Of a DNA stretch of 64,000 nucleotides, positions 9,001 to 56,346 are shown in pieces. The stretch covers positions 1 through 64,000 of the forward strand of contig JYFJ02001515.1 of assembly GCA_000934665.2 (NCBI GenBank), in the 5' to 3' direction. A program made the translations under genes and the position numbers. Every line of letters starts with the position of its first letter. Positions within the stretch are counted from its first letter, which is position 1. The notes under the pieces are model-generated. The model had not been told where the DNA came from and searched no databases. It saw only the letters and a program-made list of their open reading frames with translations. This stretch comes from Catajapyx aquilonaris. Its lineage: Eukaryota.

Positions 9001-12000
9001 AAGTTCACATTTTTTTTTGTTGCATTGTCTGAACCAGAAGACATGTGTGCATGAAAGTATAACATCTGTCACGCGGGTTTGTGAACAAGGTTGCAAAAAT
9101 ATACAGAAAGTCAAAATCGCCAAGTGCCCCCCCCCCCCTTTCCTCCCCATTTTTGAGTGACAATTTGCGTGTGAACCATTTTTCGAGATGTTTAGCAGTT
9201 GCGATAACACACGAGTTTCTGTACCAGGGAGGGAAAAATCTGTCTCTCTCGTCTCCAGGGAAAAACTAGTTACACCCGAAAAATAATGTATGTAGCAGAC
9301 CTGTTTTTCCTCAGTTCTTGAGCGAAAACGAGCGCCTTTTCTTTTTAAACCCGGCAATGGGCCACTCCCTGTATAATGTTGGGGGTTAGACAGTTTTTCT
9401 CACGCTTAAAATTCGCCGCTTATTGGATGTGTCCATCAAAAAAGGCCTTTGCTATATACAGGGGGGATCCGAAGAAGAAGAGGGACACAACCGATTTCCT
9501 ACTCGCCTCAGTGGCCATACATTGTTGGGAGGATGAATTTTTCTGAAACAGGGTTTGGCTCCCAAGAATTAAAAAAAGAGACATTGTTTGAAAACCAAAT
9601 TAATTATTTAGCTGGGTTGAATAATGTCGACTTATTTCCTTTTCCACGGACAACATCCTGTGGGATAATTATATCACACTTTGCACATGCCCTGTACTTA
9701 TCAGTAGTCGGTTTGATAACAGCTCCCTGAGCCCTTGATATTGTTAAAGTAAACCTGAGCGTAAATTTTTGCGTAACCTCGACACATTGGAAAAACCGGT
9801 AAAAGCTGCGGACACACTCCTTTGTTACATCGTATGAGTTAAGGTGGCATTGGTGACAAAAATCGTATTGTCAACCCCCCCCTAAGGTTGAAGGGACGGA
9901 CACTTTTATTTTTGTTTATTTATTGCTACTTTTTATACACATATCCCCCCCCCCCTCTCATGACCTCCAGTTGTGTGTGTCTCTCTCCTAATAATATATA
10001 TACCAAAAAAAAGTTTCCCCCCTCTCATACATCGGATTGGCCAGAAGGTCTCCCGCCCGGACTCCGGATTGGTTTTTGTGATCCAGGGAGGGAAAATGTT
10101 GAACCCTTGAAAGGGGATCCGGATTTGGAGGGAAATATTTTAGGCGGGCTTTGGCTTGGTTGGTCGACCTCCCCAAGGGTGGGGGGATTGCTGAGGGGGG
10201 GTCAGCATACTCTGGGAGATCAACCACCCACCACAGAGTGTGGTGACTTGGAGCTGAGGACACAACATACTTGTGGGGGTCCTAGGTTGGATATGTGTAC
10301 CTGGTGTTACAGGTATATTGTTTGACCTGGGGTTATATATACTAGAATATTGTAATGATGGTTGCGGTGGATTATGGTTTTGTAGGTAAATAATTTTTTA
10401 TTTTTTAAAATGCAAGGCGCATGTCCGGTTAAGCAAGGATAGTAATAAAGTTCGGTCGTTACTTGTGATGTTCATGGAAGACTTACCTTTCTCATTGCAG
10501 CAGAGCGTTCCGGTCTGGTTCACGGTCTCTTCAGCGGAGCGCCAGTTGCACCAGCCCCAGGTCTGTTGAATTCATTTTCCGTGCTTTGTTAGAGGATTCC
10601 AGTGATGTGTGTTTTTAAAAAGAAAGTTGCTTAGAAGCTTGGAAACTCAGTGCATCATGACTCGTGTACTTACATGAGCATTCGTTATGAGCGTTAATTT
10701 TTTTTTCTTCTTCCAGGCGATACCTAGCTCTACGGAGGGCTCAGGGTCACTCCAGTTTTATGCAGGATTTAGATGACGGCTCTGAAAACAAGGAGAATGC
10801 ACAGAGAAGCACTTCTGGGGAAAGACTGGTCACCGGGTTTCCTAGTCCAGCCAAAGCATTCAAAATTGCTCAGGTTTGTGCAAAATAAAAATTATTACGC
10901 CTGATACTTTGCATATCTGTGAATGAGCTTATTAAAATATTTTCAAAATGTTTTTTTTTAGTTTGAGAATGCAGTGAGCAGTCCTGCAAAGGCAAGGGCA
11001 CCCCTGGAGGACTTTGATTGCAACTCGCAGGACAGTGGGTATGCAAATTCGCAGTCATCTCTTGGTGAGAAGGAGGATGCCAAACTTCAAAGCAGGTGAG
11101 TATTTTGTACGGGAATAAAACTTCGTGAGAGAGAAGGTGTAACTTGAGATGCTCTGGGCAGAATAATAATTTAATGTACAAAACACATGCGATTGTTTTG
11201 AAATTTTTGTTGACATACACAGATGTATGAATATATTCAATGGAAAGCCATGAATGTGCTGATTTTTTAAAACCAACCAAATGCTTTTAACTTAATTTGA
11301 GTTTGTACAACCAGGAATTTTGGAGGAAAAAGTAATCCTGGTTGTTGTTATTGCTTTGGTTGTTACTAGCTCGCCTTGTTATGCTAATAAACTGTTGTAT
11401 TTTATGAAGGTATGGGGAACCATTGTCATTCCCAAGCCCTCGACGGCCACTTGGGCTACTTCCGTCATCTCCCATGCGAGAAGTGCCTCTCAACAAGGTT
11501 CTGCTGTCGCCAAGCCAGAGGAAGAGTCCCAAGGCTTTTCCTGGACTGGGACCCATCTCCGAAGCCAAAATTTTTGCTGAGAAGGACGATGGATTCTCAT
11601 ATGTTAGCGAGTTGGACTCAGCAGTGAGTTAACTTGCTGGATATCACAAACAAAATATTTTATTGAGTTAAGGAATCTTGAAAGAGGTCCAGAACCTTAA
11701 TTCAGTAAGGTAATGTCTTTAACTAGTGGAGAAGCTTAATGGGAAATTCCTGATACTGGCCGCATTTATTTTTACTATCAGTGTATGCCTAATTCGTGGT
11801 CCATTTTTTAACTCGATCTGTTTTTTCAGGCTGATGCATCAAAATTCCCGGCTGGCCTTTCCTCCCTCCTCTCCGCACCTATCGCCCCTGGATTCAGCTC
11901 GGGAGAGGCGGTTTTGGAATACGCCGGGACTCCAAATGCCGGGGCATCGAAGCCTTCCTTTCGACGATGCCTGTCAATGGCATATGTTTCGGCTGAATCT

Positions 12001-13002
12001 TCAGTCTCTGCTGCACCAGCCGCATCGTGCTTCAAGCGACCAGATCCTCCAGCAAGGGAATTGCTGATCAAACCGCCTGAAAGCAAGAGACCGCGGAAGT
12101 CTAGCTCATTTCATTATGGTGGTGATGCCTCAGTGGAATCCAGTGGAATTTCAGGGAGCGTAGCCGAGGGAGGGGCCAGCAACCAGATGCATCTCAGCCG
12201 GATATACCAAAGGCATCATTCGGAGAATGAGGCGTCTATCAAGCTGGCACTGCAGCGATGTAAGCTGTCAATCACTTGTAACTGTTTTGTACGTAGGCCG
12301 TGCAGAGACTTTCATTTTGTGCTTCTCATTGCAGCTTCTCAGGACCCTAACCTGATCGGTGATTTTACTCGGACATATGCCCTCCCACGACTTGCTGATG
12401 GACGTCACCAAGATCTCCAGTGCATATCGAGTGATGTGGTGGCTGCCCTTCTCAATGGGGATTTCAACCATGCTGTGTCCTCGTATGAGGTGGTGGACTG
12501 CAGGTATCCCTACGAGTACAATGGGGGTCACATCAGAGGTGCCAAGAATTTATACACCAAGGACATGGTTGTCAAGGAACTATTGGAAAGCGGAGAAGTT
12601 AGGCCGCAAGTCCTTGTGTTTCACTGCGAGTTCTCATCGGAAAGGGCGCCCAACCTGTGAGTTGTAAATTTGTGGCATTAGGAATATCGACTAATGTTGT
12701 TTTTTCCCCTCCTCCGTAGCATGCGCTTCCTTCGTAACAGGGACCGGTCATCAAACAAGGAGAGGTATCCACATCTGCATTTTCCGGAGGTGTATGTACT
12801 GGAAGGAGGCTACAAGTCATTCTACGAGACTCATCCAGAGTTGTGTTTCCCTGCCGATTATGTCTCCATGTTTAACCCCAAATTTGAGGCAGAACTCAAG
12901 CTGTTCAAGGCCAAGTCGAAGAGCTGGACTGGAGGCACTTCCTCAGCCTCGGGAACTGACGGTGGAAAGTTTCTCACTAGGACCAAGAGATATGGATTGT
13001 GA
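1..13002 (+). CDS. cdc25: Cdc25/string-like M-phase inducer phosphatase, 5'-partial, 9 exons visible (~602 aa)
   Basis: Exons <1-157, 6050-6101, 10501-10560, 10717-10873, 10962-11095, 11410-11623, 11830-12259, 12335-12656, 12720-13002; all GT-AG, phases consistent. N-terminal LSPVTNL motif, ENKEN, DSGYANS, DDGF, LSSLLSAPI; catalytic domain LIGDF...VDCRYPYEYNGGHIRGA...HCEFSSERAP...RNRDR...YVLEGGY. The two small exons (6050, 10501) are less certain than the catalytic ones. Confidence 0.95.
7487..7768. mobile_element. Non-autonomous DNA transposon (MITE, Tc1/mariner-pogo-like ends) with internal tandem repeats, in Cdc25 intron 2
   Basis: Left end CAGTAAGTTAAAGGAGTATCTT matches the reverse complement of the right end (CAGTCGGTTAAAGGAGTATCTT) at 20/22; TA on both flanks (7485-7486, 7769-7770); interior is copies of a 21-23 bp unit AGTCTGGGAAGATACTCCTT(AT), ~3 in one orientation and ~8 in the other. 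Confidence 0.75.
8740..8866. repeat. Perfect inverted repeat, 60-bp arms with 7-nt loop, in Cdc25 intron 2
   Basis: 8740-8799 is the exact reverse complement of 8807-8866; loop GTCAACT. The hairpin centre is repeated directly at ~8875-8916. Confidence 0.95.
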
Positions 13003-14730: not shown

Positions 14731-16886
14731 ATGGCGGGCATTTTCACGTCAGCTGTTGAACTCTCTCTGGAAAAATATGCTCGAAAAAGCTGCAAGACTA
14801 TTCTCTATGGGACTGCCGGATTCAGAGACACGTGAGAAGGGGTCTTCTAATTACTTCTAATTACATTTAATTGCAATTACTTTCAGTGTTGAAATTTTTT
14901 TAAAAATTATAATTTAAAAAAAAAATAATTTCACAGGGCTGATGTATTGGAGCATGTCATGTACAGGATGGGATTGCTGGCAGTACTTAGGTCAAAGTTC
15001 AAGAAAGGTAATTATATTGTCGCAATCGATCGTACGCGACACATAACAAATTATCTGCAATTATTTCCGTACAGCCGCTGTCGGAGTGATGATAACAGCG
15101 TCGCACAATCCGGAGAAGGACAATGGCGTTAAGATTGTTGATCCCATGGGTGAGATGCTGGAGTCGTCTTGGGAGGAACTTGCGACCGATTTGGCTAACA
15201 TCGAGTGAGATCCGCATTTTAATTTAATATATGTACTTGTTGTCTAATTACGGTTTATTAATCGCAGGGATCATAAGCTGGGACAGTCGTTATCTGATAT
15301 TGCGAAGAGAAATGATATCAACGTTTCCAATCCTGCCTTGATATTCCTTGGACGCGATACGCGGTAAGATTAAAATAATATTTACATGTGTGCGCCAGTA
15401 TCGTACATATCGTGAGAATAATTATTTTGCGTACACAGACGAAGCAGTACCGGCCTTGCAAAAGCCGTCTCGGCTGGAGTTAAAGTCCTCGGAGGTGACT
15501 TGCGCGATTATGGCGTAGTTACGACTCCGATGGTACACTATTTTGTGACTTGCCATAACACAAATGGCGGTTACGGTGTGCCGACCGAAGAAGGGTATTA
15601 CAATAAGATAGTTGGAGCTTTTAATGCGCTCGTTAAGATGGTAAGGTACCTCTCTCGTATAAACATGTATAAAAAATATAATTTTTGATGTATGACGTAG
15701 GAGAGTGTGAATGGTGATTACATGCCGAAAATACAATTTGACGGTGCCAATGGCGTCGGGGCACTCAAAATGAAGGAGATTAGTTCCAGGCTGGATGGCC
15801 ATCTGAATGTAGCCGTTAATAACGATGGATCTTCCGGAGAGCTGAACAATCAAGTAAGCCTTCAATGATAGCGATCGCACTTTCATTAAACAGCAACGAT
15901 TCCTTCCAAGTGTGGCGCTGACTTCGTGAAGGTCAACCAGAAAGGACCGGAAGGAATCAAAAGAGAGCCGGACGCTCGATGCGTGAGCGTAGATGGCGAT
16001 GCGGATCGTGTGATCTATTATTATTACGATAAAGGAGGCGTCTTTCATATGCTGGACGGAGACAAGATTGCGACCCTATGTGCGTAACATGCCAACGTTG
16101 CGCTGTAGTTACACGTACTAATTTCTGCAATTATTTCTAGTTGCCATGTACTTTGGCGATCTGGTCGGAAAGTCTGGTCTGCAGGACCTCAGCCTCGGGA
16201 TAGTTCAAACGGCATATGCAAACGGCAGCTCCACGGACTACATCAAGTCCTTGGGTATACCAGTTTCCTGCGTTTCGACAGGAGTGAAGCATCTGCATCA
16301 CCGTGCCCTCCAGTTTGACATTGGAGTGTACTTTGAAGCCAATGGTCACGGAACTGTTGTGTTCAGTTCCAAAGCTAGAGAAGCTGCCAAGAAGGCTTCT
16401 AACGCTGCGGAATTACAACTAGCGATGGATGTGATCAATCAGACAGTCGGGGACGCATTGGCTGATTTGCTGATGGTCGAGGCCATACTTAAGTTGAAAG
16501 GATGGAGCATAGACGCATGGGATAAAATGTACCAGGATCTTCCAAATCGGCTGGTGAAGGTGATGGTTGCGGACCGAACGGCCATAACGACTAAGGATGC
16601 GGAGAGGGCTGTCGTTACGCCGCAGGGTTTGCAGATGAAGATAGACCAGTTGGTGGGACAGTACGAGCGTGGACGGTCCTTCGTTAGGTGAGCCTGTCGC
16701 CATATTAATTTCGGTAATATATTAGTTACATTTTGCGCTCTTAGGCCATCCGGTACAGAAGATGTGGTTCGAGTGTATGCCGAGGCAGACACGATTGAAA
16801 ATGCAAACATGTTGGCATACCAAGTCGCACTGGCGGTTCATCAGATGGCCAACGGAGTTGGACAACCACCGGTTTGTCCCCAATGA
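14731..16886 (+). CDS. PGM3: Phosphoacetylglucosamine mutase (PGM3/AGM1), 9 exons, 536 aa
   Basis: Exons 14731-14831, 14937-15007, 15075-15204, 15268-15363, 15439-15640, 15701-15853, 15911-16079, 16141-16687, 16745-16886. Motifs YGTAGFR, active-site TASHNP, ANGVG, CGADFVK, metal-binding [41 protein letters not shown]. Confidence 0.97.
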
Positions 16887-18068: not shown

Positions 18069-21000
18069 TTAAAACCTCCCGATCCAAAAGGCAGTAACGG
18101 AAAGGAGCGCAATGGTGAGCAAAGACCCAATGTTGCTGGTGGATCCTGCCCTGCAGTCCACCAACGCCCTCGCCTTAAGAAACTCGGGACCCAGATAATC
18201 CCTGTAGTTACGCTGATTTTCAGGCACAACTTGCAACTTGTTCGTCGCATCTTGAAAAATCAAATCTGCATACGGAGGCGGGGAATAGTATAAACTGAAG
18301 CCAAAGTCGTCTTGATACTTCCGCCCGAAATACTGCTGCGCGTACGTGAGCAGGTTGATATACGCCTGTACTTCTATGTAATTGTATCCTTGCCCACGTG
18401 TTACGACTGCGTTCGCCTTAACAAGGCCTAAATTGCATCTTTCGTAATCGGTTACAGGGGCACGTGTACCGTCACGGCATAGCAGCTCATAATCGCTTGC
18501 CAGAGTGTTACGTGCCCACCATTCCGCCCGTTTCCCATCCGTAATCTCAGACACAGTGGTGTGCTTTACAAACGCAACTTGACCACCTCCTTCGACTAAG
18601 CATCTGAATGCGCCGAGGTATCCGTAGTAATCCTCAGCCGATGAGCGCTGACAGTATCCGCTGCTGGAACCATGACACAGGTCGCACAGGTTGTCATACT
18701 GGCGATCGTAGATGTACTCGCTGTTGACAGCGCCTGGTACACATGCTTTGGTGAAGTACTGCGAGGCGGCCTGCAGCGAATTGCATCCATATCCACGCAT
18801 CCGTCCGTTTGAGAGCAGGTACGCCATAGGCATGACCCAACCGGCACCGTGTTGGATGCCAGTGTGGCAGGTGTTCTTGTCCTTCAAATAGGTGAGGTCA
18901 GTCGACGGATCCCCCAGGAGAGCCACAGCAACTGCGTAGAATTCAGGACGCCCAAGGTTGTACACCTCGGACATTATGGGAATCAGACCGTAGCGGTAGC
19001 CACCGTTGTACACATCGCCAGCATCAAACACGGCCACATCAGCATCACTGCAACATGCGAGAATGGACATTAAAAATTGAATCCAATGAGACCAATTTGA
19101 CAACTCACCCATTGCGGACGGCCTGCATACAGTGCGTCTGGCTGTAACCCTTGTAGCAGGTCATGTCAGGCTTCAACAGCTGCGCCTTCAGAGCATCCTT
19201 CATCTTGACGCATTTCAGCATCTCCGCCTCGGACACGACACAGAGGCTCATGCGGCCAACTGGACATCTGCGTATCCCCATGATGAGGTCTAAGGATGGT
19301 CCCAAATAATCCTTGAATGACTGCTGGGCTTCTGGCAGAGGATTCAAACCGACTGCCGTGTCTTGGAAAAGGAGGTCACGACGTATACCATACTTTGGTA
19401 CAGATTCGAACAAATGGAAGTCGCCTCCTGCAAGGTAGTTGTAATTGGGGTCCGACTGGTGCAATGAAGATGCTTGTGGGTAGTACTGTGGCTGCGACTG
19501 GTTCAGAGAGTACGACTGGGGATAATACGGGTAAGCAGTTGTCGTCGTGAGGCTTGGATTTGTGTCATACGGGTTGAAGTTACGCCTGTCATACTCGAGG
19601 TTACGGTCACTATTACGACGGTCGTAGTCTAAGTTGCGGTCGTTGTTGCGGCGGTCATTCTGATTGTAGTTGGGATTGCTGGAGTTGTAGTACTGGTTGC
19701 GGTTGTAGTTGCGGTCTGAGTCATACTCAGGGTTGCGGTCACGGTCGTAATTGCCTTGGTAATTGCGATCACGGTTTGAGTTTTGTCCCGAGTCGTAAGG
19801 ATTGCGGTCACGATCTGTGTTCTGTCCAGGATTGTTAGGGTTATAAGGACTGTAAGGATTTCTGTCGCGATCTGTGTTCTGTCCTGGATTGTACGGATTT
19901 CTGTCACGATCTGTGTCTAGTCCAGTATTGTAAGGGTTACGGTCACGATCTGTGTTCTGTCCGGGACTGTAAGGATTTCTGTCGCGATCTGTGTTCTGTC
20001 CCGGATTGTATGGATTTCTGTCACGATCTGTGTCTAGTCCAGTATTGTAAGGGTTACGGTCACGGTCTGAGTTTACTCCAGGATTGTACGGATTGCGATC
20101 TGAATCTTGCCCAGGATTATAAGGACTCCGGTCATAGCCTGTTGAATTGTAGGTGGAGTTGGCTCGTCGCACATCCGAATCAAAAGTGCCTCCGAACACT
20201 TGCACAGCCTTTTCCAGGAACTTCTGGTAGCGCAGTCTTAGAGCATATGGCTTTGCGGATGACGTGACAACAGCATGAGCAGGCGATCGACCCCAATTGC
20301 AGTTGCGATATGATTCCAGTGGTGCTCGTGAGCCATCGTCGCATATTAGCTCGAAGTTGGCTCGATTGACACCCTCTGAAAGAAATGGGCCGAAATTATT
20401 GCTGTTGCTCTTTAGCCAAATATCCACAGATACTCACGGAAATCATCACTCCTGGCAAGCATCTCATCGACTGTGTTGTGTCTCAGGAAAGCAATCTGTC
20501 CCTTTTCAACCAGACACCTGAACGCTCCTTCAAACCCAGCGTACGGATCCCTACTGGTGCATCGCTCCGTCGGGCTGTCAGTTCCACAGAGGCGACACAG
20601 TTCATCCGAGTTGTCGCCAAGTGGGTTGTACTTGTCAGTGAGGGAGTTGACGGCACAGCTGATCCCGAAGAAACTAATTGTGGACTTTACGTGATTGTTG
20701 CAGTCAGTGACAGGCATCCACCCTTGGTCCATCAGCTGGGAAATAATCAGGGCTCAGTTAATTAATTAATTACGCAGTGCGTTAAAGAGGCCAACGGCCT
20801 CAATATGTGTTATTATATCAATACATACCTTTTTGATAGGTACGATCCATCCAGCAAGTGTTCCAACCCCTGCGAAACACGCATTAGACCCTCTTAGATC
20901 CCCCAGTGTCCGCATATTTGGCAGCGCATTCTTCTTGGTCACCGCAACCGCGTAGTAAAACGTCTCTCCTCCCTCATACCTCTCCTGCGCAATCGGAATC

Positions 21001-22092
21001 AAACTGTGGTACCTCCCGCCAATAAACATCTCGCCCGGATCAAGCGTAGTCAAATCCGCCTTGTTCTCATCCAAAAAGTCCATACACTCATCCTTGTTGT
21101 ACGCCTGAGTGCAATTAATCTGGAAAGCGCTTAGACTAAACTTCCGCTGGACATCCGCGTTAGTCATGGCCATGGCAAAATCCTGGCACTTTTGAGTCTC
21201 CTGGTAGTTCACCGTACACCAGACCAGGATACGGTTGTCGTCATAGTTCGGATTCCAGTTCCAATCTTGCTCATCGCCATAACCTGAAAAAGAGGGTTCC
21301 ATTTTAGTCTTTACTTTGAACGTTGGAAGGCTCCCAAGTTCTAATGTTCGATAATTATTGGAATGTTCGAATGTTCTAACGTTGTTCGAACGTTGGAATG
21401 TTCCAATGTTCTAATGTTCGAACGTTGGAATGATCGAACATTCAATATAATTATTGGAATGTTTAATGTTCGAACGTTGGAATGTTCGAATGTTCGAATG
21501 TTCTAATGTTCGAACGATCGAATGTTCCAATGTTCGAACGTTGGAATGTTCTCATGTTCGAACGTTGGAATGTTCTAATATCATTCGAACGTTGGAATGA
21601 TCGAATGTTCTAATGTTCGAACGTTGGAATGTTCTAATATCATTCGAACGTTGGAATGATCGAATGTTCCAATGTTCGAACGTTGGAATGTTCTAATATC
21701 ATTCGAACGTTGGAATGCACGAATGTTCTAATATTATTCGAACGTTGGAATGATCGAATGTTCTAATGTTCGAACGTTGGAATGTTCTAATATCATTCGA
21801 ACGTTGGAATGCACGAATGTTCTAATATTATTCGAACGTTGGAATGTTTTAATATCATTCGAACGTTGGAATGCACGAATGTTCTAATATTATTCGAACG
21901 TTGGAAGTCTCGAATGTTCTAATATTTGAACATCGGAATGCTCGAGTGTTCTAATATTCGAACGTTGGAATAATAGAATATTCGATTGTTCTAATGTTCG
22001 AAAGTTCGGTGTGAGTCACTCCCAAGCGTCCTGTACTTACCCCATGCCGTTTGAATGATGGCCAAAACGACGGCAACGGCCAGCCAGTCCAT
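18069..22092 (-). CDS. Tsf2: Melanotransferrin / transferrin 2, bilobed, signal peptide and C-terminal GPI-like signal, 5 exons, 1016 aa
   Basis: Exons 22092-22041, 21283-20829, 20735-20438, 20375-19109, 19047-18069. Signal peptide MDWLAVAVVLAIIQTAWG; transferrin motifs in both lobes (YYAVAV, AGW, LCxLC, GAFRCLVE, ELxCxDGxR, CNxG); hydrophobic tail AGSTSNIGSLLTIALLSVTAFWIGRF. Confidence 0.93.
19770..20135 (-). repeat. Coding tandem repeat, 39-bp/13-aa unit (DRDRNPYNPGQNT-like) with 117-bp higher-order period
   Basis: About 9 NPY/SPY-containing units in the translation; TCCAGTATTGTAAGGGTTACGGTCACG recurs at 19921 and 20038 (117 bp apart). Boundaries approximate. Confidence 0.9.
21316..22005. 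repeat. Satellite of ~8-bp subunits (GAATGTTC / TAATGTTC / GAACGTTG) filling most of melanotransferrin intron 1
   Basis: Dozens of degenerate 8-mers grouped into recurring longer units such as TTCGAACGTTGGAATGTTCTAATATCA. Boundaries approximate. Confidence 0.92.
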
Positions 22093-22521: not shown

Positions 22522-23907
22522 ATGGCGGGTCCCGAAGTGTACTTCACTCTTTTCTACGTGTTGCTCTCTCTTTGCGTGGTTTTCCCACCGACCGAGTTCG
22601 TCTCGGCGGGTCTGACTGTGCACAACCTGCTGTCCAGATGGATACCCAGCGAGGACCTGGAGTTCGTGCACCACCACATCAGGAGGACGGCCGCGAATGT
22701 GTTTGTCCACTCTTGCATTCCGGCTGGTGAGACGTGGCCCTTTTGTTTAGGATTTAATGGAATATTTGCCACGTAAGAAGATCATGACCGCAATTGTTCG
22801 AAAAAATAATAATTGGCAGATAGTAAAAAATGCATATTGCAGCAATATGCAATGGTTGAAGGTCATACCGATAATTGCGCACGATTTGAAACGTTGCGAA
22901 CGACACAACAATTTAATTAATATCGTACATAACCTGTACTTATTATTTTCAGGATATGTGTTCGGCTTGTGGTATAGCGATCCACGGAATTTTGCGCATG
23001 ACTTCAGCAATTCCGGACCGTTGTGGCATCTGTTCTGTAGCGTTTGTCTTCTTCTGCCGGTGCTGGGAGCTTCAGTGACCTTTTACTGGTACTATGACGG
23101 TTGGCAGAATCATCCGATCTGCCAGGCGCTTGCTTCGTTTTCGCCGGACCGCTTGTGGGGAGCAATTGCGCTGGATATCAACAGGGAATTCCGCCGGATT
23201 GATAAGATCTGTATCCGGACTGGGACAGTAAGTCGTGTCGTTGCGACTGACAATTGGGTCATGAAGGTCGCACCATATGGGTTGAAAGTTGCGCATCAGA
23301 GCGATGTTGCGCTTGTGCTTGTCAGCAGCGATCACCATCAGGTATCCATTGAAACCCCTGGTCGCACCCAGTTTCTCAATATCGAGGTGAAGAGTGCAAG
23401 ATCAGACACATTCCGCATCCGGGTCAATTCGCTCGATCTTAAAGACTTGCAGGATAAGATTCACCGACCTATAGCCAACATCGGGAACATACGAATTGAG
23501 CGATCACTTGCGGACCGATTTCTAGAAGCATTCAAGGAGCTCGTTTATGATAACGAGCATGTTCTGCTGAGGGATGAGGAGGAGTTGGAGCCTTGCATTG
23601 GATGCATGCAGAATACGGCCAACGTTAAGCTGTTCAGATGCTGCGGATCCGACGGAAGGGCTGGGTCATGTGTCGCTTGCTATTGCAGGCCCATGTGGTG
23701 CCTGGATTGCATGGGAAAGTGGTAAGGACTCGTCAGTGCAGATGCCGCAGTATGAATTAACATGTACGTTGCATCTCTTTCAGGTTTGCATCCAGACAGG
23801 ACCAAAACCGCCCTGATACGTGGCTCGGCTCAAAATGCCCATGCCCAACATGCCGAAGCCTTTTTTGTGTTCTCGACGTGTGCCTTATCGACAGGAGAGA
23901 AGAATAA
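22522..23907 (+). CDS. TMEM129: TMEM129 ER-membrane E3 ubiquitin ligase with atypical C4C4 RING, 3 exons, 365 aa
   Basis: Exons 22522-22726, 22953-23721, 23784-23907. N-terminus FTLFY..CVVFPPTEFVSAGLTV..FVHHHIRRT; INREFRRIDK; VVATDNWVMKV; RING CIGCMQ..CYCRPMWCLDCMGKWFASRQD..CPCPTCRSLFCVLDVC. Confidence 0.96.
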
Positions 23908-43300: not shown

Positions 43301-44610
43301 TGATTACTGTAGCTTCCAGGCAGTGATTAACCCCCTCCAGGGTCCGGTCCTTTGCCCCTCCCCACTCCGGATAAATTTACATCCTGCTGGAATATTGGAA
43401 TTTCGTCCAGAAAATCCTTCCCAACATTCCCCCCTGAAGGGACCGCCCCTAGAGAAGTCAGAAGCTCCATGTGAAGTTGGGGTAATTTCGCAGTGTCCAT
43501 CGACGCGGAAAATTCCAGCATAATGCCCATACGTTTGGAGAGTTTCAATAGGACTTGTGGCTACCGCAAAAGCAATCCCCAGAAAGTCCATCACTACGAG
43601 AGCTGGAGGATCTGGACCGGAACATTTATTTTATTTTCCGGGAGCAAAGGATTGTGTCTGGCTGCTGCACACACACGGCATAATACGCAAACTGCGTGTT
43701 GATAAGTTCTTTTTTTTTTAAAGCCACGCACCGTCGCGTCTCTTATATATTAAAAGGTCATTGGCTGGGATGTTATATGATAGTTCCAGATTTGTGCTCC
43801 TCTGAAATTTTCAGGCTCCCGCCATCATAATCTGATTACACCTTGAAGCCTTTCCGAGCCCCTGCCCAATTAATATAACTTGGCAAATGGGGCTGACCGT
43901 ACTCCCGAATTTACTGGAGAGGTCAGGTAAAAAGAGGGTTTCCTCATTTCCATCAGAAGGAAACGGATTACTCTGGAAGGCTCTTGGGGCAGTCGTTAGT
44001 GCTCCTGGGCAGTAGTACCCCAGAGCTCATTATCTGCTCTCATTTGCACTAGTCCGGGGGCTCAATTAAGGCTTGTTAAGTGCGTCCAGTGCGAGAAAAA
44101 AAAAGCATTCCTGAGGGGTCTATGCCACCGAGCTGCTGCTTTTAGCTTTCGGATCTAGCTCCATTTTATTTATTTAGTTATCAACGTGTTGTACTGCTTC
44201 CATGGATTGGATTATCCCCCCTCTGGAAGCTGCATGATGGGAGGGGTTGTTAGGAATCCAATTTTATAGCCGGTCCGTGACTATTGTGGGCGCCACCACC
44301 AACATAGATGGAATGCTTTTAGAATAATGAAGCTCAAGCTGGCTGCACCCATTTTTTGGGGGGTTTGCAAAAAAAAATTTCAGACATGTCCCCTAGGATG
44401 AAGCTGTGTGCGTGTGATAAGTCTCGGCACGTATTCCGGCGACATCTGCTTCAACTCGCATAATCCGGTCCTTCTCGGGCTTCCGGACACATTCTGAAAT
44501 TCATTAGGGAGGAACCAGGCTGAGAAGAGCGTCAAAGCGTTATGTCAGGTGCTGGAGGCTCCAGATTATCTTAAAAGGTGGCTGGTGTTGACAATTTCCC
44601 TGGGCCAACT

Positions 44611-46735: not shown

Positions 46736-47711
46736 AAGCCTATTAGGAGAAACATGCGGACATTTCCTATGCACTTGCACTTTTTTGTGCAGAAATTTAC
46801 CCTCGAGTACATTAATGTTTTTTGGGGGGTATTGCAATAGTCATGTTTTAAGGCAAATTGCGGTTGTTATATCGACCAACTTGTACACAGTTGCCTCGAG
46901 GGCTGCTAGATAACGCTGCGGAGTTGGTTTCTTGTCGAATTTGCAACAGAGAATTGCGCATTTCATGCCCTTTTAGGCAAGAAGGCTAATTACGTGATTG
47001 TAATAAGTGGTCCGTTCTGCAGCGGCCGGGTTGGGAGCGCGAGTTACGCGGTTATTAAGTTTTGCAAAAAAAAAAAAAAAAATGATTATTGTGGTGGAGG
47101 AGAAGAGGACAACTTCTTTTTCACGCATCGATGGGAACCATGCGGCGTGTTACTGTTGCTAAATGCCGCATTTAAATTGACGTTGCGGCGCCTCATTTGA
47201 AATTATAATAGGTATATATATTGTGGGCGCGTGAGAAGTTGCTTAGTGATTCAGACACGCAACATGCTTGGGAATAAATGTGCAGCGAACGGATTTCTAT
47301 CAGGATCTTCTGAATGGTATATAGTCGATTGGTTTGATATATAGCGTGCCAAAGTCTATATATGATTCTCCTGACGTCGATGTAGTGATTAGACGACTCT
47401 TGATAGCACTTATTAGCTGTACGTCTGCTTGTATAACTTGTGACGTCCACACTCACAGGTGCCATTGGTAACATTGAACTATAGTTACTGAGTTGGTAGC
47501 ATGTAATTAAATTGGAAATAGCAACGTCCTCAATGAGGATGTTAGTTGCAACACACACAGGTGTAAAAATAGATTTTGCAATAAACATAAGTGCAACTGA
47601 GCTCCTCGCATAGGTTATGTATTTTGTAATTGAAGTTGATTGAAAATTTGTGATTGTCTTTGCAGGGAAGGATGGTGATATAGGAGAGGGAGAAAGCATC
47701 AAGCGAGGGCC

Positions 47712-50700
47712 ATGGTGAGACGTCGGACAGCTTCCTTTGTGAAGACTGCAGCCTTCCTCTTCGGGATCACTTTCCTGTGGCTGCAGCTCAACGTCACGGA
47801 TCTTAGTGATCAAGGTGAAGGAGGAACCACCTCCAAGGTTGGAGGCTCAGGTGGGCAGGACATGTTGTCAGCCTGAAGCCTCTTTCTAGTCCGCAAAGTT
47901 TTTTTTTGGGAGGAAAAAAAACATGCCTTTTTATGTTAGTGCAGGTTTCTTTGCACTTTTTAATATTCAAAAAAGTGACATGCTAGTGGTACACTGACCT
48001 AGTTGTAGTGGGCAGTTAGCTAGTGGGAAAGTTTGTTTCTATTGTGCATGAATACATGTGCAAGTATGCAAAGGAAGTGTGACTTGCACAAGTGGGTTGC
48101 TGTGATGTCAAATTTTTTAGTGCCATCCAGTCATATAAATTATGATTGGAGGGGGGCCTGCAGTGCAGTTGCTTGTCTGCTATGAACGCGTTTGTCCCAA
48201 ATTGGCCCAGTCGCCATAACTCGTCCAAGCAACCTCCTTTCACTGAGTAGCGCATGAAAATTGGATTAGGGAGAAAGAGTCCGAATGATATTGAATAAAT
48301 GAAATCTTTTATGGTCCCGGAAAAATTGTCAAGCTGAATACAGTCTCGTTGTATAAATAGTGTACTCTCATTTGCATGCATGTGTAACGCTTGCACATAA
48401 ATCTACCTGTAAGCGAGTGTGTTATGAAAAGAGGAATAATTTATGTGTACAGAGTAGGACACTTTCATCTGGTGATAATGAATGGCTGCCATGTTGGTCC
48501 TGATTTCCCTGTAGAAGTGTGGATTCAACTCACGATGATGTGTTGGAAAGAGTTTCTTTTGTAACTGTTACCAGCTTTTTCATTAGCTGGAAAATTTGTT
48601 TACACCACCAACTTTCCATCACGAGTAGGCAAACCTTAACGTGAATTAACATAACTAGCGGGAGATGGCAGCTTAGAAAGCAATCCTATGTAAGCTGCTC
48701 TAGTGTTTATTTAAACGTTCAGTAGCATACATGTTCATGACGAAACTTAATTACTGTGTAGTCGCAGTCAACAGTAATCTGTGACCGTACAGGTCTGCAG
48801 TTTGTTGGACTTGAATGATTTATTACTGGAAGTGGCATGCATATTGTGATAGTTAATATTAGTTACAGCAATGCAATGAGTGACTTTCTAAATGTGTAAT
48901 TATGAAGCTAACAGGTGACTTTCCATATGATTTCACGGGGAGGCTTGAGTTTTTCTTATCGCTGATTTGAGCAATGCTTTCACTTTCAATTCCATCATTA
49001 CCAGGTCTAATGTACCGGAAATAATAATTGTGTAACTTTCACAAGGGTCGCAGTCGCCCTCTGAGACACTGTAATAATTATACAAAGGCCATACCATGGC
49101 TGCCAGACTTTCTAGATGATTGGGAAATAAGTAAGATTTAATTCTGCAATACTTGTCAGAAATTAGCTCCCCTGTGCAGCAGTAGCGCGGATTAAAAACG
49201 TTATTATCCCCTGGCCAATATTGACTTGCTATATCAAAGGTTGCAGCATCCTCAATAATATCAGCTCTGTCGGATGAAGCCGCTATCATTAGCAATTACG
49301 AATAATGAAGCGAGCCATATCCAAACAAACATCCATGCAAAATCCTGCTATATCAGCAATAAAGTAGTCTTAAAGGCTTAAATTATGTCAGTTCATCTGA
49401 CAAAGTATCACAAAAGCTGCTTAAAAACATCTTGTCCAGTTGAATACGGAATATTTGGTGGTGCTTTCTGATTCTCTTAATGAGGAATAATTATTTTCTT
49501 GCTGTTAGCTCCCGTTCTTTTAAATTTTCAGTTGCACTTTTTTTTCCAATTTCATGCCTTCTTAGCTGTTATGCTGTTCAGTCACGTGCAATTGGTCCTA
49601 AGACTGATGACAGCTATGAGGGGAAAATAATTGGCCCCGACGCTTGCACATTCGCAACAAGTACCCCTCTGGCAATGAAAGGCACTCAATAAGTGACGGC
49701 ACTTCAAACTTTTGAGTTATTATCTTCTTGACTAATGAGTGCCTGTAAGTGAAACTGTCAGTACGAGTATTAATCTTTCCAGCAGCTCCTTTGTGGATTA
49801 GTGTGCAGTACACATTTTCGCTTCCTTGCTGGGACTACGTAAGTTTAGGCTGCGTGCTATTTTTGCCTGGGAGTTTCTGAATGATTAGTAAGGCATAATA
49901 ACCGTATGCTGTAGCATAGTGATTGACACTCTTGTCCAACTCTTGTGACATTTGTTTGGATATTTTTACAGGAGGGGGCACCACTGGTGGTTCGAACGGT
50001 GCTGCAGCCGAGTCGGACCCACCGATCAACACGTCTGCTCTGGCTGCCCTGGCTGCTATGCATGTCCCTCGTGCCCTCCACAAGTTCCTGACAGCCCGCC
50101 CTCGCAATGCCAGTCTCCTACCAGATGACCCAACTGTGATGGATGGCGTCCCCAACCCACCTACACCTCGCCCATTGTCTATATATGAGATCCGCCAGTT
50201 AATACAACAGGCCAACGAACAACAGTCTGTTATCAACGAGGACGTGTTTGGTCCTCTGAACCACAATGAGACAGTGGTCATTGTAGTCCAAGTCCACACG
50301 AGGGTCAGTTACCTGCGGCACCTGATTGTGAGTCTGGCCCAGGCGAGAGGCATAGAGCAGACGTTGTTGGTCTTTAGTCATGACTTCTATGACGAGGAGA
50401 TAAACGAGCTCATCAGGTCCATTGACTTCTGCAAAGTCATGCAGATCTTCTACCCATACTCCATACAGACGCATCCGAATGAGTTTCCCGGGCAGGGACC
50501 CAACGACTGTCCAAGAGACATCAAGAAGGAGCAGTGAGTTTTTTTGCATTCATTAACTTCAGCCTTCAAACTAGCTTCCTGGCTTATTTTTGTAACAGGA
50601 ACAATTTTTTACGTACAGCTTAAATGTGAATATAATGAAGCCTAATATTCCACCAGTGATGCTTGGCTGTCCCTTTAATTTTAATGTCAGTTTAATGTCA

Positions 50701-53376
50701 ATAAGTAAGTAACGATTTAGTGTCCCTCTCACATGTCTTTACAATAATTCTTACTAGCCTGTGAAAATGATCTCTATTTTTTCTTGATGTTATGCATAAA
50801 TATTTATGCAATGCAGTGACGTCAGAAAGCTAGCGTCAAAGCTTTATGCATGGCAGTAGTATGTGAAGTCACCTGACGTCACCTAATGAAACACTTAAAA
50901 TGAGTCTTCTCATTGGTGCGAAGGAAAAGGCATCCTTTATGAGACTCTCTTAGGCTTGCTAACTAATGTAAGTGGCATTTGGCTGCTATGAAACTACTAA
51001 CACCCAGACAAATCCTTTGACGGCTGGGCATTGCTAATGAATACCTGAGCCTGCAGAATTAGGTTCTCATTCTCTTTTTATGTGCAGATGTTAAAATTTA
51101 ATCACACCAAGCGTACATTGCAAGTGGATGAAAATCCAGCATGTCTTCCATGATGTTCACAGTGTTATTTTTATCTTTCAGAGCGGCAATTAAGAAGTGT
51201 GTGAACGCTGGTAGTCCAGACCTCTACGGCCACTACAGGGAAGCCAAATTTACACAGACAAAGCACCACTGGTGGTGGAAAGCAAACCGGGTGTTTGACC
51301 AGCTGGAGATCACTCGGAACCATACAGGTTAGTGTAAACACAGCTTTTGGCAGCCCTATGGCAATGTGTGCTCAGAAGCTGCATATTGAAGCTTGCGAGC
51401 TGGTTTAAAATTGCTAGAAATAGTTGAGCACCCTATAAATACTTTTAAAAACATTTTCAGGTCTAGTCTTGTTTTTGGAGGAGGACCACTACGTGGCAGA
51501 GGATTTTTTGTCAGTATTAAAGCTGATGGACAAAACGCGCAGAGCCAGCTGCGAGAAGTGCAACATCTTGTCCCTTGGGACCTACCTGAAAACACACAAT
51601 TACTATGCTGACAGCAAAAAGGTGAGACAATTTTTGCACTACTGCCGGTAAAAAAGTACTTGTTCTGTTAATTTTTTGGGGTTGAAGTGAAGTTTTTTGC
51701 TTTGTGTTTTTGTGGTGGTGTCATACATTTTTTTTGTGGGGAGCGATCAGGACAGACTAACAATGCATGTTGCTTATCTGCGGACAGCCCCAAGTTTGAT
51801 TTATCAGTTGGAAGAGAAAAGAGCGAGTGCCTGACACTTCCGCCACAAACTAATCTCTTCTGGGAATTGTAAGCTGCATTGATTTTGACAGACTGGTTGG
51901 GCCAGTGAATAAAAAGTGAATAGGTTGGGATGAGGGGGCTTTTAAAAAAAAACAAGTGGCTTAATGTGAAGAGACCTGCTTCTGTATTTCCTTTGGGGGC
52001 TGGTTTTTTTTTGCATTGCAGAGGGGCGGCTCGAAAGGCTCATGGCCCACCCTTGTGAGTACCTCATGGGCCTTCTCTTCTGTGCTACCCTCTCTCTACC
52101 AGCACTTTCACAAGGTATTAAGCCTGGAAAGCCTTAATAATTTGTGGGACATGCATGATTAGGTTTTTTAAAAAAATGACACATGTCAACTTTCACTAAC
52201 TCACACTTTGATTTGTGACATTTGTGTGTGTCTGTGCTTGTCTTGCTTGCGAAGCTATGTCATTATTCATTTTTACCCGTTTGCATCAGTCTGGTTTGTG
52301 GATGGTCACAATTTTGCTACCTTGTACAGAATCTGTACATCCTTGTTAGCAGCTAATGGACAGCAGTTCACATGTGTATGATTTATTGGTGGTAGAAATA
52401 TTATTGTATGGACAGTAGAGCTTCCAAAGGCATGAAGGCGTAACATTGCCTACTTATTATCAAGTAAATTTTTTTCAGCATGAAAAGAGTTTAGCAATGT
52501 AGGTACTGTATAATCACCTCATTTATGGTATGGAAATTTGTTTTCGTAGTCACACCTTGCAACAGGTTCATGTGATGACGTTTCATTGCCTTTTTTTAAA
52601 ATACTGGATTGTAAGACTTGCTTCGTGAAAGCGGTCATTTACTACATTTCTGGGCAATGAAATATGACCACATGAATATACCTTTAGTGCACTGCCATAG
52701 ACCTGCATGGATTAATAGTGTCCATTGGCTCACATACTTTCCCGTAAAACTATAGGCAGAGATAACGCCATGGATAAGCAGCAAGCATAATATGGGCATG
52801 AGTATCAACCGCGAGACATGGTCGGAGATAAAGCGGTGCGCGGAATTCTTCTGCACCTATGACGACTATAACTGGGACTGGAGTCTTCAGCACATCTCTC
52901 AGTCGTGCCTGAAGCACAAATTCCATGCCATGGTTATGAAGGGGCCTCGTGTCTTCCACATTGGCGAATGGTGAGTCGCACAGGGAACTTTACATTTGTC
53001 TTATTCGCTTGAGAGGATTGTTTTTATCATGTCCTAATTATGTGATGCAATTCAATAACTGGCACTTTAGTGTGAACTTGGAATAGTCAGCCCGTTATTT
53101 GCATGCAAATGAAGTATTCCATCTGCAGAGTACAATATTAATGCTATGTGTTTTGACAGTGGGGTCCACCACAAGAAGAAGAACTGCGAGTCGACAGCAG
53201 TTGTTGTGAAGGTTCAGTCGCTCCTGAGGGGAGCGGCCAAGTACTTGTTTCCCGCCCGACTGATGTTGGTGCAAGTGACGGCCAACAAGAAGCTTAAGCT
53301 GAGGAAGGGCAATGGAGGGTGGGGGGACAGAAGGGACCACAGGCTTTGCATGAACATGACCAGGCCACATAGGTAG
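47712..53376 (+). CDS. MGAT2: Alpha-1,6-mannosyl-glycoprotein 2-beta-N-acetylglucosaminyltransferase (GlcNAc-TII, GT16), ~479 aa without the cassette exon
   Basis: Exons 47712-47850 (alternative same-phase donor at 47814), 49972-50533, 51182-51327, 51461-51621, [52022-52114], 52756-52970, 53160-53376. Type II membrane anchor MVRRRTASFVKTAAFLFGITFLWLQL; motifs VVQVHTR, LVFSHD, IDFCKVMQIFYP, YGHYREAKFTQTKHHWWWK, LEEDH, SSKHNMG, FCTYDDYNWDWSL, PRVFHIGECGVH, GGWGDRRDHRLC. Confidence 0.95.
52022..52114 (+). CDS. MGAT2: Putative alternatively spliced in-frame cassette exon of MGAT2 (31 aa, or 11 aa via an internal donor)
   Basis: T-rich tract ending TTGCAG; 93 nt, phase 0-0, no stop, RGGSKGSWPTLVSTSWAFSSVLPSLYQHFHK; donor AAG|GTATT; internal in-frame donor CTT|GTGAGT after 52054. 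Confidence 0.7.
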
Positions 53377-56346
53377 TACTAGTGGAAACGATTTTTTTTT
53401 GTTCTCATCCCTCCCCTTCTGCATCACTCCTTCATCTTTTTTTTTTTCCATCACGTTCCACTACAGTTACTTGATAAACACAGCATCTGTGAAGTGGAAG
53501 TGTATAAGTTGCCATCTTAAGAACCTGAGTGGCGTCTCAGTGTAAATGGTCGCTGGCAAAGTCGCACTCGTGAACATTGCCAGGTGCAATTATTTACACT
53601 CGCATCACTTACGTGAGTGGTGATTGAAATGTGTTCATTTTTTTGTTATATTCGGGAGTAGACAAAATGTGGCAGTGGATGTTATGTGGGCCAAAAAAAA
53701 GAGAAACAGTGGTTTTTTTTTTGAAACCAAGAACTAAGCGCCAAAAGCAGACTCTGAACCTAGTCAGTCTTGCTGATTATGTAATAATTTTCATTTGAAA
53801 GGCAATATTCAATGAACCTTTCTCAAATGAATAAGCAGCAAGGTTGGCCTCTCCTCATCCCACCTCCCCCCTCGTCCGACTTCCTATATACCTTACCCGA
53901 AACTAGTCAAGTTTTGCCAGTCAACGTTGCACTTATGCTGCCTTTGGTTCCCACGACTTTTTTCCCATTTCCAGTTTTGTCATGTCCTCTACTAGCTTTC
54001 AATGATTTTTTTTTTTCCTTCTGAAAATATGAGGAAAGATCAGCCCTTAGTTTTATCATTCTCTCTCACACAGTGGATGAAAGGCCCATTGTAGATGAAA
54101 TATTGTTGCTGAAACATGTTTTAGTTGGCATGATCGTTTGATTATTGTTTTTCCGGGCTCAGTGCAACAATTAGTGACTCTTCATTAAAACAAGGTGCTG
54201 ATAGTGTTTTTCCCCAGCCTCTTAAATTCTAGTGATAGTGAATGTGGTTAGGTATAAGTGTGACTATGCACTTTTTGATGCCATACATTTTTGAAATGGC
54301 AATTCTTCCGATGGGGAAAAAAAGTTTCAAACAAAAATTGTGGAGACTTTTTTTTTTTTGGAGTCGTGAGAGGTACAAATGAACAATGGACACCTTTATA
54401 AGAAGTAAGAAATATAATGCTAAAGAAACTATCTAGTTGCCCCATGACTTGGCTTCACTTTTTTTTTTCTTCTCAAACATTGGATATTAGATGTCATAAA
54501 TGGATGTAAGTTATATTTGGATACATCGCAGTGTTACAAGAGAACGTTAATTTTTTATTGCCATAAATGCGCAAGCAGATTTTCTCTCATTTTTTTAGCA
54601 GAGTGTGTGGGGCATACACGATTATATGGAGAACTTTTTTTTTTTCTCTTCCTAAGGCTTTTGTGTTCTTTAAAAAGCAAATGTGGGGATCAATCATACA
54701 GTGCAACTCAAGTACTTGGACTGTGGTTCAGTTTGGCAATGTGTGGGAATAATGTTTAGCGTCTGAATGTTCCTTCTTGTTGGGTTGGTTTTTCCCACAT
54801 TGTTGCCTGCTTGATCACATTTCTTCCCTTGTGCCTTTCCTTCCCGTTCGTTCTCATATGTTGGTCAAAGGTATGTTCAATCCAGTGTGGGTTTCAACAA
54901 GTTTCAAGTCCAGTTTTTTTTTACTTCAGAGTGGTACGATGCGGACACCTTAAGTGTAGATCACTGTCAAGGTGCAGCGAAACCTGTATACAATAGTGGA
55001 ATCATTCCATCCTGCGAAAATTTTATATACTATCAATCAACGCAAAACTAGGAAAGGCATATATTCACATGTCTCCGATCTGGTTCCTGATTTTTCTGAT
55101 TGCCGTTGCTTAAAATGCCGTCCGTTTTTGGGTTAAACAGGTTCCGCTGCATCGGACAAAGATGCATAGGAAATTCTATCTTGCTGCCAGGACCGCAAAA
55201 TTTCACTGTACCATGAATTCTACAGAATCTGAGGCTAAACCGTTGTATTCCCATATACCTTAGCTACTGAGGCCACAAGGTTTAATGAAAGTTAGTTTTA
55301 GGTGCCTGTAAATAACAGCGAAGAAATTGCATGACAGAGTAGTGCAAATGAAAGTCACCGGTTCTCCCCTTGTTAACCTACAACTCTTTCATATAAGTTA
55401 CCACTCCAAGTTCTCATTAAAGACAGGAAATGATGTGTAACTAGTGCTGAAGGAATATTGATACTCTCTGCAATTATGCAAAATTCCATGATCTTGACAT
55501 GAAGAGAGGCCTAGGTTCAAAAGTGGTACTTTCCGACAAGTAAAAATTGGTCTTGGAACTTTTTCAAACCCACCATGTGTAATGTGTACGCTTATTAAGT
55601 TTTTCTCATCTTTTTTGTATTTAAAAAAATTAGTGTGTTGTAACGGGAAGAGCAAAACTGACCAAATATTGAGGCACTTAATGATGACGAAGTTGTTTCT
55701 TCCAATTGCAAACTGCGGTCTACCAATTCATGTGATTGCATTTTATTCACTCCCCTTTTTTTTTCCGTGACGGCCACCTAAAAAAAATTGACGTTTCTGA
55801 GGAATCGGGTGGCTCGAAGCGCACTCTTTATCTCTGCACTTCTGTTTGACAAAAATGTAGAGTTTTAAAATTTATGCTTCATTGGACTGCAGTGTGTATT
55901 TGTGAGGTAAATATTGTGATCAGTCCTACAGTGATACAGTTCTTTTTTTTTTCCGTACTGAGCGTGATCTGACACAGTGTACATGTACAGGAGACAATGT
56001 GGTTTTGTTTTTTTTGTCACCGCTATCCTCTAGCACTGAGTATAATATGAGAAATATCTGGTATTTATAAAAGTGGATAAGTGACGTGTTGAGCTGCTGT
56101 GCGGTTGTTTTTTTTTATAATTAATTCATTTTTGCCAGTTGCAATATTTGTTTGCTTGAAGTGTGATACAAAGAACTTTCACGATAATGAAAATGTGTAC
56201 TCTTGACGAGTCATTATTCGTTTCAGGGATAATTATGTTTTCTTTTCCAATCATCTACATCGTGATTGTTTTATTTTGTGAAATGGAAGTCAAATAATCA
56301 TGCCAAAGAGGTGTGCATTACTTTATGTCATTTTTATTCGAGAACC

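Follow-up and report, generated by a model that had tools for sequence, protein, structure and literature searches.

Known MGAT2 isoforms of insects

The N-glycans of insects are largely of the paucimannose type, complex ones being few; GlcNAc-transferase II (GnT-II), the product of MGAT2, commits a glycan to the complex type. The present analysis concerns an optional exon of MGAT2 in a 64,000-nucleotide (nt) stretch of DNA from Catajapyx aquilonaris (GenBank assembly GCA_000934665.2, contig JYFJ02001515.1, positions 1 to 64,000 of the forward strand), which is referred to at its full length as the window. In Drosophila melanogaster, Mgat2 (CG7921) is spliced into two forms, p63 and p91 (Tsitilou & Grammenoudi 2003, BBRC 312:1372, cited in PMC7619574), and the citing paper states, as data not shown, that only the short p63 was active in Pichia (PMC7619574); a literature search on CG7921 returned nothing on isoforms besides PMC7619574. 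Short and long isoforms of MGAT2 are both annotated in Schistocerca (P0016 vs P0017), Tribolium madens (P0027 vs P0028), Euwallacea (P0031 vs P0033) and a satyrine butterfly (P0359 vs P0360), and both kinds are likewise annotated in Anopheles gambiae (P0079, P0088, P0107) and Uranotaenia (P0068, P0074, P0089).

In all probability, the 93-nt segment 52022-52114 of the window is a genuine optional exon of MGAT2, and it joins a family of optional exons that is already known and annotated in insects. An original prediction, made from the sequence of the window, had called the exon hidden; this term does not suit it, because it is an old optional exon that is annotated elsewhere, namely as isoforms X1/X2 in many insects, and because a paper of 2003, cited in PMC7619574, already described the alternative splicing of the Drosophila gene. 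Taken as a whole, the evidence makes it likely that the segment is orthologous to an ancient cassette exon of insect MGAT2 that is alternatively spliced; the long form of the enzyme may be a regulated variant.

The MGAT2 gene and its cassette exon

The features on which the argument depends are the following:
47703-53376, + strand: coding part of the MGAT2 (GnT-II, CAZy GT16) gene, located by tblastn with four insect MGAT2 proteins, by Pfam PF05060 and by spliced contigs
~47703-47873, 49995-50533, 51195-51327, 51461-51621, [52022-52114], 52756-52970 and 53160-53376, + strand: the six MGAT2 exons, with the cassette in brackets
51461-51621, + strand: constitutive exon 4, with the EED (DxD) motif in LFLEEDHY, ending in ...YYADSKK in phase 0, donor AAG/GTGAGA
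51622-52021, + strand: intron upstream of the cassette, 400 nt, 3' end T9-GCATTGCAG
52022-52114, + strand: cassette exon, 93 nt, 31 residues RGGSKGSWPTLVSTSWAFSSVLPSLYQHFHK, phase 0-0, without a stop codon, placed by homology and splice signals
52055-52114, + strand: conserved core of the cassette, VSTSWAFSSVLPSLYQHFHK, the sole part that aligns to the insect cassette profile
52115-52755, + strand: intron downstream of the cassette, 641 nt, with four GCATG, two of these being TGCATG
52756-52970, + strand: constitutive exon 5, beginning AEITPWISSKHNMG and holding the segment YDDYNWDW

The DNA of the window is eukaryotic, with a G+C content of about 42%. Membership of the encoded protein in family GT16 follows from the Pfam PF05060 matches of exon 4 (48.2 bits) and exon 5 (111.7 bits), for a cut-off of 27. 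Both catalytic landmarks of the enzyme are present: the EED motif, which has a metal/donor role in MGAT2 (PMC7014118), is encoded by exon 4, and the YDDYNWDW segment of exon 5 aligns with the segment of human MGAT2 that holds D347, the catalytic base of the human enzyme (PMC7014118).

The cassette is an open and frame-preserving segment with AG and GT splice signals, and it occupies the phase-0 intron position between ...YYxDSKK and [AV]E[VI]TPW. Its acceptor is strong, with an AG (CAG) behind a T9 tract directly before 52022. Its outer donor, AAG/GTATTA, is weak: it agrees with the consensus at 6/9 positions, where the constitutive donors on either side reach 8/9, and weakness of this kind is typical for the donors of optional exons. 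The sequence bears out the original prediction in its coordinates, reading frames, splice signals and motif positions.

Homology of the cassette in other insects

A cassette profile was built from 28 distinct inserts of other insects (29-40 residues) and run with hmmsearch against the 3512 six-frame stop-to-stop open reading frames of at least 10 residues in the window. The single significant match was the frame 51965-52159 (E 3.8e-6, 24.6 bits), the next best having an E value of 0.22. The profile alignment covers VSTSWAFSSVLPSLYQHFHK, is identical at most positions and stops exactly at the outer donor; tblastn with insect MGAT2 proteins places the cassette peptide between exon 4 and exon 5.

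The same junction was then read in 195 homologous MGAT2 proteins in which both flanking exons were aligned; the queries used to collect them were exon 5 and, after it, the junction region from a locust long isoform. In 65 of them the sequence runs straight through, 3 have 1-2 extra residues and 127 carry an insert of 29-281 residues. The core motif scored directly before exon 5 was W-x-[FY]-..-[LVIM]-P-x-[LMF]-[YFS]-..-K; it stands directly before [AV]E[VI]TPW in 119/127 inserts, typically in the form PSWGFQILPSLYQHYQK, and is also present in the cassette of the window. The eight inserts lacking this core comprise one aphid insert with a diverged core, two models that continue beyond the core, probably by intron read-through, four Anopheles forms that use another optional exon, and one evident misprediction.

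The insert carriers span insects of at least 11 orders: the sources name Orthoptera, Blattodea, Phasmatodea, Hemiptera, Thysanoptera, Odonata, Ephemeroptera, Coleoptera, Hymenoptera and Diptera, and Lepidoptera were added through cluster look-ups. Among the named carriers are cockroaches, termites, stick insects, thrips, a damselfly, a mayfly, beetles, sawflies, ants, bees, wasps, flies and mosquitoes. Mayflies and damselflies share a cassette core of 15 residues with bees, beetles, moths and flies, a conservation that implies a function. The original prediction had proposed a frame-preserving cassette inside the catalytic domain of MGAT2 and had named a homologous peptide in other arthropods as a check; gene anatomy and homology bear out the former, and such a peptide was found, at the same junction, in this range of insects.

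It could be objected that short open frames between an AG and a GT are common in introns and that Pfam assigns no family to the peptide, so that the segment might be a chance open frame unrelated to MGAT2 isoforms. This reading is contradicted by the profile match, which is unique within the window, agrees with the gene in strand, frame and intron and ends at the donor, and by the core shared with 119/127 inserts of other insects at the same junction; its probability is close to negligible.

The distribution beyond the 195 homologues was surveyed by a profile search of 1.84 billion cluster representatives, in which 149 of the best 150 matches were scanned with the cassette profile, each cluster being represented by one isoform. 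Four representatives, all from insects, scored E <0.01 when P0074, a match of the preceding searches, is included, namely a mosquito, a psyllid and two Lepidoptera clusters; a third lepidopteran representative (P0210) was missed by the profile and has the cassette according to its flank alignment. No insert was found in representatives or members named as amphipod, millipede, sea spider, nematodes or sea cucumber, a thin sample with one isoform per cluster, apart from 8 extra residues in one amphipod model. The protein P0233 carries a 45-residue insert ending in LWAAKLFSSVLNVFKK, an end faintly similar to that of the insect cassette and below the profile threshold, and this insert may be a distant relative.

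Within the 1134-nt interval between exons 4 and 5, tblastn with 12 long isoforms (from Hymenoptera, Diptera, Lepidoptera, Lingula, a psyllid and P0233) detected no second cassette exon; the known core alone was matched, with a best E value of 0.004. The 65-residue stop-to-stop frame around the cassette yielded no homologous protein candidate of 35-114 residues.

At least two different optional exons occur at this junction in Anopheles MGAT2 (P0071, P0115, P0116, P0120, P0107). Singly, they give inserts of about 97-105 residues without the core or of 61-94 residues with the core; together, they give 216-234 residues.

Transcript evidence and the state of the exon in Catajapyx

Transcript evidence comes from one public run (X1), the kind of which is not on record (share 0.26, near the exonic fraction) and the assembled contigs of which are spliced. 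Exon joints with GT..AG ends were found in these contigs at 51327/51461, 51621/52756 and 52970/53160. The second of these joins exon 4 directly to exon 5, is seen in one spliced contig and is the skipping junction that the original prediction had given. Because no contig covers the cassette itself, its inclusion in the mRNA of this organism is argued from homology and would be expected by analogy with the annotated insect isoforms.

Several observations weigh against the interpretation of the segment as a working, regulated cassette. Indeed (i) the alignment with the cassettes of other insects is confined to the last 20 residues, and the basic start KEALRAMKRH... that most insects have is missing here; a helical start of this kind was found neither in the cassette nor in the rest of the intron; (ii) the core has a one-residue insertion, FSSV as against FQ-V/I elsewhere; (iii) no contig of run X1, the one run available, lies over 52022-52114, and the contig that skips the exon has 30 letters on the exon 5 side, one under the bridging threshold of 31 letters, at a depth of 3.5; (iv) the long isoforms of other species are mostly automatic predictions; (v) the p91 insert of Drosophila is presumed to lie at this junction, and the likeness of the Drosophila sequence was judged through other Diptera, its own protein not being among the matches; and (vi) the functional part of the interpretation depends on a single remark on the Drosophila enzyme in yeast, given as data not shown, and on a low-confidence structural model.

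The missing basic start and the extra core residue mean that the cassette may be decaying. Carried further, they would fit a relic exon, descended from the insect cassette and now unspliced or spliced at noise level, with a frame kept open by luck or by the recency of the loss; the weak donor GTATTA and a single contig over the interval that skips the exon point the same way. This is unlikely, since the frame of 31 codons is open, both splice sites are intact, the pyrimidine tract at the acceptor is strong and the last 20 residues are mostly identical to the profile. Furthermore, psyllids have cassettes of 29-31 residues in which the basic start is likewise absent and which annotation lists as expressed isoforms, so that the basic start may not be a defining part of the cassette. 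The missing contig cover says little about inclusion, because assembled contigs drop minor isoforms. An orthologous and still optional exon thus remains the preferred explanation, and a gene model for the window should carry both the short and the long MGAT2 isoform.

The contigs of run X1 extend about 1.5 kb beyond the MGAT2 stop codon (53455-55000), with three small indels relative to the window; this extension is either a long 3' untranslated region or a neighbouring transcript.

The internal donor

Within the cassette lies a second candidate donor:
52055-52060, + strand: internal GTGAGT, candidate alternative donor CTT/GTGAGT, agreeing with the consensus at 7/9 positions, within a 4-residue LVST stretch

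The original prediction had combined this site with the motifs considered below into a model in which two donors yield isoforms with 0, +11 and +31 residues and Rbfox and STAR (HOW/QKI) proteins govern the choice in neurons or muscle. The 33-nt (+11 residue) form was a reasonable idea, because the internal donor (7/9) is no worse than the outer one (6/9). The comparison with other insects argues against it: none of the 195 homologues has an insert of 3-28 residues, the conserved core lies wholly outside the 33-nt form, the 11 residues of which correspond to the unconserved part of the cassette in the profile alignment, and the LVST stretch that holds the GTGAGT is not found in the cassettes of other insects. 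A 33-nt form made with the internal donor is therefore unlikely, as far as sequence comparison can tell.

Rbfox and STAR motifs

The second part of the same model concerns five motifs in the introns that flank the cassette:
51756-51761, + strand: ACTAAC, STAR-type core, with no TAAY half-site within 20 nt
51764-51769, + strand: TGCATG, 258 nt upstream of the cassette acceptor, adjoining the ACTAAC at 51756
52152-52157, + strand: TGCATG, 38 nt downstream of the cassette donor
52195-52200, + strand: ACTAAC, STAR-type core, with no TAAY half-site within 20 nt
52704-52709, + strand: TGCATG, 52 nt upstream of the exon 5 acceptor

An Rbfox site just downstream of an exon is expected to promote its inclusion, and the TGCATG at +38 lies in this proximal downstream position. 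A bipartite STAR (QKI/HOW) element consists of an ACUAAY core and a UAAY half-site within about 20 nt; no TAAY was found within 20 nt on either side of either ACTAAC, so that no bipartite element is present at these two sites.

Motif counts were evaluated in the interval 51622-52755 (1134 nt) with 5000 dinucleotide shuffles and with sliding windows, the motifs having been picked after the sequence had been looked at. At least three TGCATG occurred in 3.8% of the shuffles and 4.1% of the sliding windows (P ~0.04), and at least two ACTAAC in 2.5% and 1.7%, respectively (P ~0.02); both counts jointly were reached in 0.08% of the shuffles and 0.3% of the sliding windows. The TGCATG signal does not appear to be specific to the cassette, because the motif is frequent across the whole MGAT2 gene: 10 copies, 8 of them intronic, lie in the 5.7 kb of 47700-53400, about 3.6 times the density of the window, the + strand of which holds 31 in 64 kb (0.48 per kb). 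The enrichments of TGCATG and ACTAAC are modest, each being weakly above chance.

The complete model with two donors and an Rbfox- and STAR-governed choice accordingly looks quite unlikely. The strength of the internal donor, the TGCATG at +38 and the joint motif count speak for it; opposed to them are the absence of any short insert among the homologues, the gene-wide occurrence of TGCATG, single-motif P values of about 0.02-0.04 after a post hoc choice and the absence of TAAY half-sites. In addition, a full-text search of the library used yielded no paper that connects Drosophila Mgat2 to Rbfox1. As regulator of the cassette choice, Rbfox at the +38 TGCATG is plausible as a candidate and no more than that. 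The orthologous insect cassette, spliced with its outer donor, is the explanation retained in what follows.

Structural position and predicted consequences

Human MGAT2 (5VCM) could be aligned on both flanks, which sets the insertion point between chain positions 278 and 279, approximately K306/V307 in the numbering obtained with an offset that places the catalytic base at D347 (PMC7014118). The insertion point is thus about 45 residues after the EED motif and about 40 residues before the catalytic base. In an AlphaFold2 model of the long form of Schistocerca, which superposes on human 5VCM/5VCS with template modelling (TM) scores of 0.84-0.86, the insert comprises residues 332-367 and has predicted local distance difference test (pLDDT) values of 43-53. 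The model has a helix (324-340) over the basic first part, a low-confidence stretch (346-357) and a short helix (357-364) over LPSLYQHY, which leads into a strand (367-372); the loop just before the insert is likewise of low confidence. Since both the insert and the loop that precedes it are modelled with low confidence, the cassette may lengthen a flexible surface loop, with its conserved end anchored to the fold.

The following mechanism is proposed. The cassette lies within a phase-0 intron that splits the catalytic domain, with the EED motif in the exon before it and the catalytic base in the exon after it. Skipping gives the canonical enzyme, and inclusion would add 31 residues at a position equivalent to about human K306/V307. 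The first part of the insert is variable and probably flexible, and the conserved aromatic and hydrophobic end SWAFSSVLPSLYQHFHK would run directly into the next beta-strand. The long form could then be under regulation and differ from the short one in activity or in acceptor access, either of which would probably be reduced, and the ratio of short to long form could tune the output of complex versus paucimannose or hybrid N-glycans in each cell. Lower activity is suggested because only the short Drosophila form was active in Pichia, by the remark in PMC7619574; this lends weak support, by analogy, to a long form of altered activity and to an isoform ratio that would tune complex N-glycan output.

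A bolder version would hold that the cassette is a pan-insect insert some 400 million years old that lowers GnT-II activity or changes acceptor access and the use of which is set by neurons or muscle through the +38 TGCATG. This version is doubtful. If it were true, the splicing of one exon would help to decide the amount of complex N-glycan in an insect tissue. What the long form does is a question posed by the insect family as a whole rather than by the Catajapyx locus in particular.

Other features of the window

Four further regions with protein family matches were noted:
11812-12660, + strand: open frame matching a rhodanese-like domain (E 2.2e-6)
16122-16691, + strand: open frame matching domain III of phosphoacetylglucosamine mutase (AMG1/PGM3; E 5.2e-49)
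18069-21410, - strand: three long open frames matching Pfam Transferrin (E 3.5e-64, 5.6e-20 and 3.6e-24)
22751-23725, + strand: open frame matching Tmpp129/TMEM129 (E 2.8e-83)

The three frames at 18069-21410 suggest a transferrin gene whose exons are unusually long. AMG1/PGM3 acts in the synthesis of UDP-GlcNAc, the compound that MGAT2 consumes, and its frame and MGAT2 are about 30 kb apart; this proximity is probably a coincidence. A look-alike of the junction plus cassette at 44056-44208 (tblastn E 0.05, with two stop codons) was treated as a chance match, because the cassette profile gave only E 2.2 there. On the + strand, nearly all 2-kb bins hold more G than C and more T than A, and the cumulative GC skew climbs steadily to 1.92; this may stem from a strand asymmetry of transcription or of replication.

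Comparison with known systems

The enzyme encoded in the window resembles the human MGAT2 of structures 5VCM, 5VCR and 5VCS, which is likewise a GT16 enzyme of the GT-A type with conserved EED motif and catalytic base. The human sequence differs in being continuous through the junction, without an insert.

The closest counterparts are the annotated long isoforms of insects, for which Schistocerca X1/X2 (510-523 residues) vs X3 (487 residues) and Tribolium madens X3 vs X4 were compared, together with those of Zootermopsis, Cryptotermes, Lycorma, Ischnura and Cloeon. In these the insert also stands after ...YY[GA]DSKK and before [AV]E[VI]TPW with the frame kept, it has the core (P)SWxFQ[VI]LPSLYQHYQK, and short and long forms coexist in one species. 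The Catajapyx cassette differs in having 31 instead of 35-36 residues, in lacking the KEALRAMKRH start, in its extra LVST with the GTGAGT and in FSSV in place of FQ[VI].

Drosophila Mgat2, as described in PMC7619574, is alike in that an insect has two alternatively spliced MGAT2 forms. The other Diptera of the homologue set have inserts of 58-281 residues at the junction, which end in the related core QVLPTLYSIYQK and show ...VLP[ST]LYSIYQK at their end; by analogy, their size would fit the difference between p63 and p91. These dipteran inserts far exceed the Catajapyx cassette in length and combine more than one optional exon.

With cassette exons activated by Rbfox, the segment shares a downstream TGCATG, which stands here 38 nt beyond its weak donor. 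It differs from them in that the TGCATG enrichment is modest and gene-wide.

Finally, MGAT2 of the brachiopod Lingula anatina has isoforms X1 (P0365) and X2 (P0217), which are alike in having an optional, in-frame insert of 20 residues at exactly the same junction. This insert, GLIVFLKELFGYAKPEHLQD, has no clear likeness to the insect core and may have arisen independently at the same intron. If the cassette does control GnT-II output in insects, the Lingula insert would suggest that this loop has repeatedly served as a control point of MGAT2.

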